Assembly (NCBI GenBank): GCA_965207225.1
Contig: CBDBLV010000002.1
Coordinates: 352,001 to 416,000 of the forward strand
Length of the DNA: 64,000 nt
Direction of reading: 5' to 3'
DNA from: Dehalococcoidia bacterium
GTDB taxonomy: Bacteria > Chloroflexota > Dehalococcoidia > Plut-88900
The notes beneath the pieces were generated by a model that saw only the letters and a program-made list of their open reading frames with translations, was not told where the DNA came from and searched no databases. The number at the start of each line of letters is the position of its first letter. Positions within the stretch are counted from its first letter, which is position 1. Made by a program: the position numbers and the translations under genes. Shown here one piece after another: positions 48,101-49,197 of the stretch.

Positions 48101-48800
48101 CAATCGAGGGGTGGACATTAGCAAATATCCAGCAATTGAAGGTCACTTACGGTGGTTCCGAAATGATCTTGAGAATCGGGCTACGGCACACTTACACCCG
48201 TGGTATGAACTTCAACAGCCACAAGAGGGCCTATATCACGAATTCGCCCACCCAAAGATTATCTTTAACCGGTTCGTGATTTCGCCCACTTTCGCATATG
48301 ACAAGTCAGGGTCTTATCACAACGATGCCTGCTACTTTGTTATCCCGCCAAGTCCCTCAATAGCAGCAATCGTGAACTCGACTGTTGGTTGGTGGCTGCT
48401 ATTGCATCTCTGCACAGCACTCCAGAATGGCTACATCCAAGTCTTTGTGCAATTCTTGCAGCAACTTCCGATTCCGGCACTCTCAGAAGACGTCGACAAC
48501 CTTCTTGCTCAGCATGTCGAGACCTTGGCGAAGGGCATTGATGCTCCTGATATTGAGAGAGAAATCGATACCATCATTTTTGAAGCCTACGGCCTATCAG
48601 TTAACGAACGTAAGCTGATCCTAGACTGGCTGGGAGACCGGCGGGAGGCTCTTGGCGTGGAGATGTCCCCGGACTGGAGGAAACTCAACGCGCTGAGAGC
48701 AACGGCGGGTGCTTGGAAGGGCAGCATCGACGGGAATAAGCTGATTGAAGACATCTACGCTAGCCGGCTTATAGACACACGGCCCGAGCCGAGGCTTTGA
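45174..48800 (+). CDS. Eco57I/TaqI-like N6-adenine DNA methyltransferase with TRD and a C-terminal antitoxin-like extension
   Basis: PYLNGGLF, DPELLGRVFENL, GTYYTPREIV, motif I CDPAVGSGAF, YGVDIN, motif IV NPPY, FITSNKF, GVTTGLNEAFVID, LRGRDIKRW. Confidence 0.9.
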   Translation: MTLATDGNIVDILRDFGGDPQRADSLAAFLGFEPVSSPEDRLAGALSGGLKQFLRGSGDRGFDVSELYRVGGRKADPAEAGLWVGVLSDWGHRSSDRDRSRRRITRALVEHVPDRRALALLVPPSTNPRREAELVFPRTQVGASNGAVTSVRAHLDLDNPTRFHRDLLRGLRITPGANLLEVSRLWQQQFSVERVTTRFYHEYAAVRDRIAKALLADNPDHPVITSLGEEEARAWATRQMGRVLFLWFLQAKRWLGAPGGMGSPTYLLNLWYKRAETQEGEYYRGILAPMFFDAMATGSSSRGEHPVLGFVPYLNGGLFRRNVLEDRIDDAGEVSLPDEVFDPDADNEEGQQQTLLGLLSRYRFTTRESTPDDQSVDPDPELLGRVFENLYQGDERHDTGTYYTPREIVHFMCREVLDGYLRDETGVDQGTLDSLRQEAVGSRDEHQPLSGIPADALIDALETIRVCDPAVGSGAFLLGAIQEMVALRRGILFSQRSYVEPHELYQMVSEWKRRIIENSLYGVDINPEAVEICRLRLWLSMVLDMDEPPNPNSDWALPNLDFQILAGDTLVDGIAGVAFKESWPTPRGLQLDMELQDSLQRLERNIDHRRREFERTHRNPRRLRELRDLIARDQREIILLHLADGLKRAEEKLETLRKSEKPSKAALSRAQRFIERIRSLLDGVLSTDFTMVQKPFLWPVAFPEVLRQGDPDAGFHVVLANPPYVRMERIDNEDELFYGEAFPEVVASRADILVYFYARALQILRPGGWLSFITSNKFMRAGYGAGTREHLPASLRIQRVVDFGDLPLFEANGRAIAAYPAVLVGSRHKDTSEHALRVANLAGPVHRELSDAGLKVNTENVRGVLEDLDGLLARAEIRDFPQVMLNKDSWVLEDPALVRLFERLMASGTSLSKFVRGRIYRGVTTGLNEAFVIDQAKRDELVEEDPHSTDLIKPWLRGRDIKRWKADSPGLYIIFTNRGVDISKYPAIEGHLRWFRNDLENRATAHLHPWYELQQPQEGLYHEFAHPKIIFNRFVISPTFAYDKSGSYHNDACYFVIPPSPSIAAIVNSTVGWWLLLHLCTALQNGYIQVFVQFLQQLPIPALSEDVDNLLAQHVETLAKGIDAPDIEREIDTIIFEAYGLSVNERKLILDWLGDRREALGVEMSPDWRKLNALRATAGAWKGSIDGNKLIEDIYASRLIDTRPEPRL

Positions 48801-48804
48801 AGAA

Positions 48805-49197
48805 GTGAAATATCTGGTGGATACGGACTGGATAATCCTTCACTTCCGTGGCAATAGAGAAGTGGCTCGGCGCCTGGAAGAGTTGACGCCCGATGGGATT
48901 GGCCTGAGCATAGTATCGATGGGCGAACTCTATGAGGGGGTGTATAAGGCCTCGGACCCTACGGGGAATGAGAGAGCGTTGCGATTGATACTCTCTGAGA
49001 TCGACGTGGTTCACATAGACGATGAAGTGTCCAGGATATACGGGCAGCAAAGCGGCAGGTTAAGAACTGCCAATGCTCTCCCTGGCAATAACGACATTTG
49101 GATAGGGGCTACGGCTTTGCGTCACGACCTCACGTTACTCACGAACAATAGACGCCACTTTGAACGGATGCAGGGGCTGAGCATCGTTTCGGTGTAG
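48805..49197 (+). CDS. vapC: VapC-like PIN-domain ribonuclease toxin
   Basis: YLVDTDWII, GELYEG, DIWIGATAL, LLTNNRRHFER; starts 4 nt after the MTase stop. Confidence 0.92.
   Translation: MKYLVDTDWIILHFRGNREVARRLEELTPDGIGLSIVSMGELYEGVYKASDPTGNERALRLILSEIDVVHIDDEVSRIYGQQSGRLRTANALPGNNDIWIGATALRHDLTLLTNNRRHFERMQGLSIVSV

Follow-up and report, generated by a model that had tools for sequence, protein, structure and literature searches.

A putative VapC-neutralising antitoxin module fused to the C-terminus of a DISARM-like DNA methyltransferase in Dehalococcoidia

The methyltransferase, its tail and vapC

The subject of this analysis is a pair of adjacent genes in a stretch of 64,000 nucleotides (nt) from a Dehalococcoidia bacterium (contig CBDBLV010000002.1 of assembly GCA_965207225.1), which we call the window and whose coordinates are used throughout. 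The first gene (45174..48800, plus strand) is a single open frame for an N6-adenine DNA methyltransferase (MTase) of 1208 amino acids (aa), of the Eco57I, type IIG-like and DrmMI-like kind, with a putative antitoxin module fused to its C-terminus. The second (48805..49197, plus strand) begins with GTG 4 nt past the MTase stop and encodes VapC, a PIN-domain toxin of 130 aa. An earlier reading of the window, made from sequence only, had proposed a fused MTase tail directly upstream of a PIN gene, and the single frame of 45174-48800 with vapC 4 nt on agrees with it. In our view the MTase ends in a stretch of about 41 residues that is quite probably a VapC-neutralising module, the toxin-binding half of a VapB-like antitoxin, fused in frame. 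Where individual loci, genomes and database proteins have to be told apart, they carry our L, G and P numbers.

The Pfam matches of the MTase are Eco57I (2.3e-33, 116 bits against a cut-off of 25.3), N6_Mtase, MmeI_Mtase and TaqI_C, the last of which (4.4e-8, 33.8 bits against a cut-off of 26.5) identifies a TaqI-like target-recognition domain, and the motifs DPAVGSGAF and NPPY are legible in the translation. The top PADLOC matches are REase_MTase_IIG (5.7e-91) and DrmMI (2.5e-43). The PADLOC IIG models align only from residue 189 on (model position 201), and no nuclease family of Pfam or PADLOC was matched in residues 1-188. What the sequence-only reading called a restriction-modification (R-M) enzyme should therefore read as the MTase subunit of a DISARM-like MTase/helicase-nuclease module.

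The end of the MTase proper can be placed by two kinds of alignment. The type IIG and type II MTase models of PADLOC match through to their final model positions, which fall at residues 1146-1149, and phmmer alignments with tail-less orthologues break off at residues 1157-1166, the point at which those orthologues finish with short acidic tails. The window MTase continues for some 42-50 residues beyond them; the extension of "about 55 aa" in the sequence-only reading is thus real and close to the length claimed, if somewhat shorter. Alignments to the tail-less orthologues define a junction or linker of residues ~1157-1167 (48642..48674, plus strand) that joins the last MTase-homologous residues to the module. 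The module itself, a fused VapB-type toxin-binding module of 41 aa (residues 1168-1208; 48675..48797, plus strand), was delimited by homology, profile and complex model. The C-terminus reads ...LRATAGAWKGSIDGNKLIEDIYASRLIDTRPEPRL, followed by TGA at 48798-48800; this stop and the 4-nt spacer (48798..48804, plus strand) make for tight coupling, the module ending 7 nt ahead of the vapC start with the stop codon included.

VapC matches Pfam PIN at 2.9e-13, above the cut-off. The nearest NCBIfam models are those of tRNA(fMet)-specific VapC (9.1e-22 and 2.5e-9, both below their curated cut-offs), and the best relatives in the PDB are 6nkl, 3zvk and 3tnd, with an end-to-end alignment to 6nkl. Among 24 aligned VapCs D6 and E41 are invariant and D97 is nearly so; a fourth acidic residue has been assigned to the active site presumptively. 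VapC matched none of the PADLOC families.

A fusion deduced from one assembly could arise from an assembly error at the junction, and the sequence-only reading had itself pointed to a stop or frameshift between MTase and tail as fatal to its claim. Neither occurs in the junction-spanning contigs of other runs. Logan contigs of runs X1 (48300-48867) and X7 (48667-48817) span the junction with zero differences, as does run X5 through two overlapping contigs, and Logan contigs from other public runs contain no indel there, so the junction is not an assembly slip. With the identical fused frame present in 13 further assemblies as well, an assembly artefact at the junction is ruled out. The earlier claim that the locus has no separate antitoxin gene also holds, since vapC begins 4 nt on and the gene behind it, encoding a protein of 423 aa, occurs in only 2 of 14 loci with the fusion; for the latter reason we reject this neighbour as the true antitoxin.

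Relatives, origin and spread of the tail

Pfam and NCBIfam scans of the 67-aa tail matched zero families, and the module is not a curated family. There was no PF01954 match at E up to 10, and neither database places an AF2212, AbrB, RHH or UPF0175 domain ahead of the module in the MTase tail. A full HMMER scan with the tail alone against 1.84 billion representatives gave 59 matches. Besides MTase C-termini, about 40 of these are small proteins with whole-library E-values from 1e-7 to 7e-4, whose last 38-45 residues align with tail residues 28-67 at approximately 50-60% identity. In an alignment of 36 such proteins of 66-140 aa (A1), the W, L, Y and R of the C-terminal module are invariant. An N-terminal AF2212-like PF01954 domain is present in 17 of the 36 and UPF0175 in 2, while the remainder have other short N-terminal halves without a Pfam domain.

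On these alignments the homologue of the tail is the extension that the PF01954 domain carries, and not the domain itself. This bears out the statement of the sequence-only reading that the tail resembles the C-termini of AF2212/DUF104-type antitoxins and is without their N-terminal, predicted DNA-binding half. Makarova et al. 2009 (PMC2701414) predict that COG2880/DUF104 proteins are AbrB-like antitoxins acting on PIN toxins. Searching PDB sequences with the module profile yielded nothing credible (best E 0.15), and a word-based search near tail length returned three proteins, all MTase C-terminal pieces. Among individual database proteins, the tail of P0007 continues into a VapC N-terminus without a stop, whether by natural read-through or through an error; P0016 and P0020 each have two tandem modules; and P0131 is a Ser/Thr-kinase fragment with a partial module at its end.

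The genomic surroundings of free modules point in the same direction as their homology. A profile of 39 positions built from the module alone (A2) detected the module in 35 of 401 genomes sampled across the phylum, a tally that takes in G227 (the source of L025) and G038, and all 50 places outside the window's own genome lie in frames of 31-236 aa. A VapC relative lies directly downstream on the same strand in 24 of the 29 free-module loci fetched, as had been expected for antitoxins of this type. Because free modules mostly precede VapC relatives, we regard the module as the VapC-facing half of a modular antitoxin family. The search with the tail alone thus leads, as the sequence-only reading anticipated, to antitoxin C-termini beside vapC. 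By these alignments the module would be a portable VapC-neutralising unit of ~40 aa on at least four carriers: AF2212-like, UPF0175 and Pfam-less small N-terminal halves, and the MTase. At L017 and L027 (genus g82) a small module frame is followed, about 250 nt on, by a frame of more than 400 aa in place of VapC. In the window's own genome the profile found the MTase tail (1.6e-22) and a single other, weak match. The latter (L002; G000 contig C5 348720-351797) has E 3e-3 genome-wide and lies in a 109-aa frame whose end is overlapped by a VapC-like frame; it is probably an ordinary diverged VapBC pair.

The fused form is narrowly distributed. Scanning 185,579 species genomes for the pattern of the fusion-type alignment (A3) gave 11 loci, all in metagenome-assembled genomes of Dehalococcoidia; a metagenome scan added one locus, and a 401-genome sample of the class contributed the fusion in G738. 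Fourteen fusion loci are known to us with the window included, every named one from Dehalococcoidia, and the MTase frame runs uninterrupted through the tail in all of them. VapC starts 4-12 nt past the MTase stop in 13 of the 14, which supplies the count of genomes with MTase tail plus vapC that the earlier claim called for, and an HKD-SNF2 helicase lies downstream in the window and in the 13 related loci. In the databases 69 of the 70 longer matches belong to this MTase family, with tail identities of 69-100%; the exception is the kinase fragment. No locus with VapC but without the module was seen among the loci compared. The tail is 41 residues long in 14/14 loci, where MTase bodies are 61-78% identical to that of the window, and its pN/pS is 0.24, an uncorrected value with pS near saturation. 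The tail is under purifying selection.

The origin of the fusion was traced in a maximum-likelihood tree of MTase residues 501-1160, tail excluded, with 25 rows. Left out were L045 (same record as L035), L052 (split frame), L051 and L065 (same genes as L066 and L049) and the distant paralogues L055, L056, L058-L061 and L067-L072. The 14 tail-bearing MTases form one group with support of 100/99, present in 100% of bootstrap trees. By this tree the fusion arose once; several independent fusions are unsupported, as the tree gives a single group. In the sister tail-less MTases L048 and L049 the helicase follows directly and VapC is absent, and because such sister systems lack it we consider VapC an accessory of the operon. 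An unfused counterpart exists beside a distant tail-less MTase in L053 (G421, 1-3387), where a 440-nt gap and a separate 78-aa AF2212-type antitoxin with the module follow; the VapC gene overlaps this antitoxin gene and is cut off by the end of the locus. In the simplest history, a VapBC cassette would have landed in the slot behind the MTase, and one deletion would then have taken the MTase stop together with the N-terminal domain of the antitoxin.

A second tree was built from the 24 full-length VapCs of alignment A4, leaving out the partial or start-less sequences of L003, L007, L011, L012, L020 and L028, the 224-aa L010, the near-duplicates L006, L009, L040 and L041, and L047. The fused VapCs divide between the starred clades A (4 rows) and B (6 rows), both of which nest in a starred clade of 16 rows shared with VapCs of free pairs. 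The A and B clades join weakly (60/74), which is no basis for claiming either a single toxin acquisition or two. The tails, too, are of two C-terminal types, and the type of the tail equals that of the VapC in 12 of 13 loci. The starred sister pairs of the MTase tree, L033/L042 and L037/L038, each consist of one A/A and one B/B locus. As far as these trees go, the match between tail type and VapC type runs against the MTase phylogeny. In pairwise identities among 12 loci, whose pairs are non-independent, the tail correlates with VapC (r 0.57) and not with the MTase body (r -0.08).

How the tail may hold VapC

The pairing of tail and VapC proposed in the sequence-only reading was modelled as a complex, with VapC alignment A4 and tail alignment A1 as input. 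Three runs scored 0.67, 0.64 and 0.76 (median 0.67), against 0.00 for the best of three controls. The mark of 0.67 is attained by 58 of 80 solved complexes and by 2 of 110 mismatched pairs, counts that hold roughly here, since our own alignments were supplied. The runs share at least 88% of contacts, and the partner pLDDT is at least 71. The confident interface places MTase residues 1169-1198 on VapC residues 7-8, 11-16, 41, 45-66, 94-97, 115 and 118; it crosses the catalytic pocket and adjoins the conserved acidic residues D6, E41 and D97. The model thus supports occlusion of the PIN active site by the tail. Its score is not simply memorised, given that the module is without a sequence relative in the PDB. 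The earlier claim that the R-M enzyme itself neutralises the toxin survives in part: the model supports a tail bound across the active site, while the protein that would do so is an MTase subunit in which no nuclease was detected.

We propose the following scheme. A VapB-like antitoxin would have lost its DNA-binding domain and had its toxin-binding half joined in frame to the MTase. VapC, translated from the start 4 nt past the MTase stop, would be captured by the tail, which covers the groove of the PIN active site, and the putative RNase, nearest to tRNA(fMet)-cleaving VapCs, would stay inactive on the MTase. MTase with tail, VapC, variable cargo and HKD-SNF2 helicase would together make up a DISARM-like modification-restriction module with a built-in toxin. 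Release might follow when the supply of intact MTase stops, or when the exposed tail is degraded or displaced, upon which free VapC would arrest translation; host shut-off, attack on the MTase in infection, and loss or truncation of the MTase gene are possible settings.

If this is true, the locus would be a natural case of a type II antitoxin turned into a domain of a defence enzyme, giving up its autonomy, and a modification-restriction system would be physically coupled to a translation-arresting toxin. Whether by guarding or by addiction, both considered below, this would give a simple model of layered defence wired by gene fusion, and would extend the repertoire of genes embedded in MTase/helicase defence operons by a conserved toxin.

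Several observations weigh against neutralisation of VapC by the tail. Classical antitoxins act by being labile, and here the tail sits on an enzyme of 1208 aa. Where all 36 free antitoxins have Tyr, 11 of the 14 fused tails have R, Q or H: the window tail has Y, that of L036 has His, that of L037 (with VapC) Gln, and most B-type tails Arg, so that this position is variable within the fused family. L036 retains its tail (6130-6249) but has lost VapC, in whose place there are two minus-strand genes, one for a DUF6932 protein and one a 354-aa frame. L032 combines an A-type tail with a B-type VapC, and five of the 29 free-module loci (L017, L019, L025, L027 and L029) have no VapC relative at E<1e-3. 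As to the complex, the model may have passed by virtue of a general likeness to solved VapBC complexes, and the most conserved last ten residues of the tail (TRPxPxL) lie outside the confident 1:1 interface, perhaps owing to the modelling of a single VapC protomer.

Given a neutralised VapC, two accounts of its use compete. In the first, the cassette is an anti-loss device: cells that delete the island, or whose MTase is truncated by mutation, would be removed by freed VapC, so that the role of the pair would be to stabilise a costly defence operon or island rather than to sense phage. Because the antitoxin is at the extreme C-terminus, only full translation of the 3.6-kb MTase gene would yield it. 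Toxin-antitoxin (TA) cassettes are classical stabilisers, and the operon lies in an integrase-bearing island beside a tRNA-Ser gene, together with a relaxase-like gene. The asymmetry of the loci, with VapC never found without the module and the module without VapC in L036, is that expected of TA decay, and loss of the autoregulatory DNA-binding half would place the pair under the operon's own expression. On the other hand, the 4-12-nt gap suggests translational coupling, in which case an upstream truncation could lower VapC synthesis too; and approximately 20 of 69 database MTase entries are shorter than 1000 aa, perhaps a sign that broken MTases are tolerated, or perhaps the result of assembly errors alone. 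Addiction is a possibility that we hold tentatively, and plausibly an equal rival to triggering by phage, as both fit the same data.

In the second account, the MTase would be bound, inhibited or cleaved by an anti-restriction factor of a phage (a protease, or a DNA mimic of the Ocr or ArdA kind), and VapC would thereby be released to serve as a second-line abortive-infection effector standing over the restriction module. This refines the proposed neutralisation of VapC by the tail and does not exclude it. The setting of the operon in a defence island, with a Dsr1-like SIR2 protein, a CBASS lipase and cyclase, and a CRISPR array, is in favour, as is the physical tethering to the MTase that the complex model supports. 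Nothing in the analysis, however, ties the state of the MTase to release of the tail: in the model a free tail peptide binds VapC with no part played by the MTase body, and no surface that might sense anti-restriction factors was identified. A guard of this kind, which would parallel the silencing of PrrC by EcoprrI, is plausible but seems somewhat doubtful. The same doubt attaches to its strictest form, in which the only brake on VapC is hard-wired to the MTase and the cassette has been swapped between MTase lineages under phage pressure; were it correct, any phage that degrades, displaces or shuts off the MTase would trigger tRNA cleavage.

Other readings deny the fusion or the inhibition itself. 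The fusion might be apparent only at the level of the reading frame, with initiation at an in-frame Met (residue ~1162) yielding a separate small antitoxin. Such a Met lies ahead of the module in 12 of the 14 loci, and three database entries contain gene calls of 74-97 aa from this region. The Met is I or L in the other two loci, however, and the sole nearby GGAG abuts the ATG with zero spacer. As the MTase frame is uninterrupted in 14/14 loci, the fused form would be made in any case, and we think internal initiation improbable. It is just as hard to credit, or slightly harder, that the tail serves to bring an active VapC into the MTase/helicase complex as its nuclease subunit, for instance for local cutting of phage RNA or R-loops. 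The conserved three-gene operon would suit such a role, and the change from Y to R, Q or H in most fused tails could mean an altered binding mode; but the modelled interface covers active-site residues, as inhibition would, the VapC falls in the tree among the toxins of ordinary free TA pairs (the starred clade of 16 rows), and there are sister systems without any VapC. Lastly, the pair might be a functionless relic of an accidental deletion that joined a decaying TA cassette to the MTase, for which the single origin makes the 14 loci anything but independent inventions; with the low pN/pS and invariant length of the tail across diverged MTase bodies, the retained catalytic residues of VapC and the joint switch of tail and VapC type against the MTase tree, we give this next to no credence.

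Operon partners, related systems and the island

Downstream of vapC is a slot of variable cargo, filled in the window by the 423-aa protein (49243..50514, plus strand), which has no Pfam, PADLOC or NCBIfam match. Among the 13 related loci it has a homologue solely in L038, and an Atlas lead points to MauJ-like clusters (score 0.94-0.95). Elsewhere the slot contains frames of 311 aa and 164 aa (L032, L034) or of 311 aa and 136 aa (L042), matched by length only; DUF6978 and DUF1828 proteins (L033); a 573-aa protein (L037); or, in L039, a Schlafen/AlbA_2 protein (Pfam), with L040 and L041 carrying a frame of equal length, 453 aa. It is empty in L035 and L043. The gap between vapC and the helicase looks like a hotspot for embedded defence genes.

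The helicase that follows (50433..54110, plus strand) is of the PLD(HKD-family)-SNF2 kind, with Pfam matches to PLDc_2, SNF2-rel_dom and Helicase_C; it is matched by PADLOC C3a139 HKD+Snf2 at 4.2e-52 and by DrmD at 3.8e-34, and is likely to be the restriction partner of the MTase. The frame as listed overlaps the 423-aa gene by 82 nt. Its homologues align from residue ~30-39 on, and the helicase of L036 begins at the position of Met33; judging from these alignments, the true start is probably near 50529.

The pair of MTase tail and VapC is closest to VapBC systems with COG2880/DUF104 antitoxins, with which it shares a PIN toxin near the tRNA(fMet)-specific VapCs and with conserved acidic residues, a homologous antitoxin C-terminal module immediately upstream in the same operon, the order of antitoxin then toxin, and near-zero spacing; the fused VapCs, moreover, nest among those of free pairs. 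It departs from them in that the small antitoxin with an N-terminal AbrB-like, DNA-binding autoregulatory domain is replaced by the C-terminus of a 1208-aa MTase. Nor is the tail a member of the AF2212-like/DUF104/COG2880 family (PF01954), whose beta-rich N-terminal domain it is missing.

The likeness to PrrC/EcoprrI is one of logic only. The trigger of PrrC is the Stp protein of phage T4. PrrC is an ABC-ATPase nuclease in a type Ic hsd locus, silenced by non-covalent association with the type I complex, whereas here the toxin is a PIN protein, the MTase is not a type I HsdM and the silencer is proposed to be a fused antitoxin peptide. What the two would share, going by PMC3458546, is a tRNA-directed RNase kept latent through physical association with an R-M protein of the same locus. 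Antitoxin elements inside larger polypeptides are described in passages of PMC10865869 for CapRel SJ46, EzeT and fused HicAB; these are joined to their own toxins, whereas here the element is joined to a third enzyme and the toxin is separate.

The variable cargo between MTase and helicase resembles the accessory genes embedded in Hma, BREX and DISARM systems. Payne et al. (preprint 10.1101/2024.01.29.577857) report that candidates with PIN, RelE and HEPN domains lie embedded in Hma systems, and the portion of that preprint on which we draw describes no antitoxin fused to the MTase of a host system. In a full-text literature search, with supplements outside its scope, we found no publication in which a restriction or DISARM-type MTase carries a fused antitoxin.

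With class 1 DISARM the operon shares the DrmMI match of the MTase, the DrmD match of the helicase (3.2e-41 in NCBIfam) and a PLD domain like that of DrmC, which is here fused to the helicase. It is not a member, as the NCBIfam DrmD score is 141.6 bits against a cut-off of 610; PADLOC detected no DrmA or DrmB among ten neighbouring proteins, with a weak DrmA match on the SNF2 helicase itself. Membership in BREX is likewise not indicated, the PglX models scoring 54-70 bits against cut-offs of 400-900, and neither PglZ nor BrxC turned up in the proteins scanned with PADLOC.

Further defence genes lie on either side. Upstream, at 40543-44067, a SIR2-like protein of 1174 aa matches PADLOC Dsr1 models (2.5e-59) and, at its C-terminus, DUF4020; it is not conserved beside the MTase in related loci. 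Directly behind the helicase (54107-56028) is a CBASS pair of a cGAMP-activated phospholipase (NCBIfam 244.8 bits, cut-off 200) and an oligonucleotide cyclase (PADLOC 1.6e-94). The start of the lipase overlaps the helicase stop, and in L042 a lipase homologue also begins right behind the helicase.

The defence genes appear to lie within an island integrated at tRNA-Ser, a reading drawn from a tRNA-Ser (TGA) gene at 38271-38360, a tyrosine integrase next to it (region 38271-39716; Arm-DNA-bind_3, Phage_int_M and Phage_integrase) and a Replic_Relax-domain, relaxase-like protein at 56708-58759. A search of 38200-64000 for the tRNA-Ser end repeated directly over at least 18 nt found nothing. From ~59480 to the end of the window at 64000 there is a large CRISPR-like array with a 29-nt repeat, a period of 61 nt and at least 73 copies. 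The open reading frames listed within it are artefacts, and some of its adjacent spacers are duplicated.

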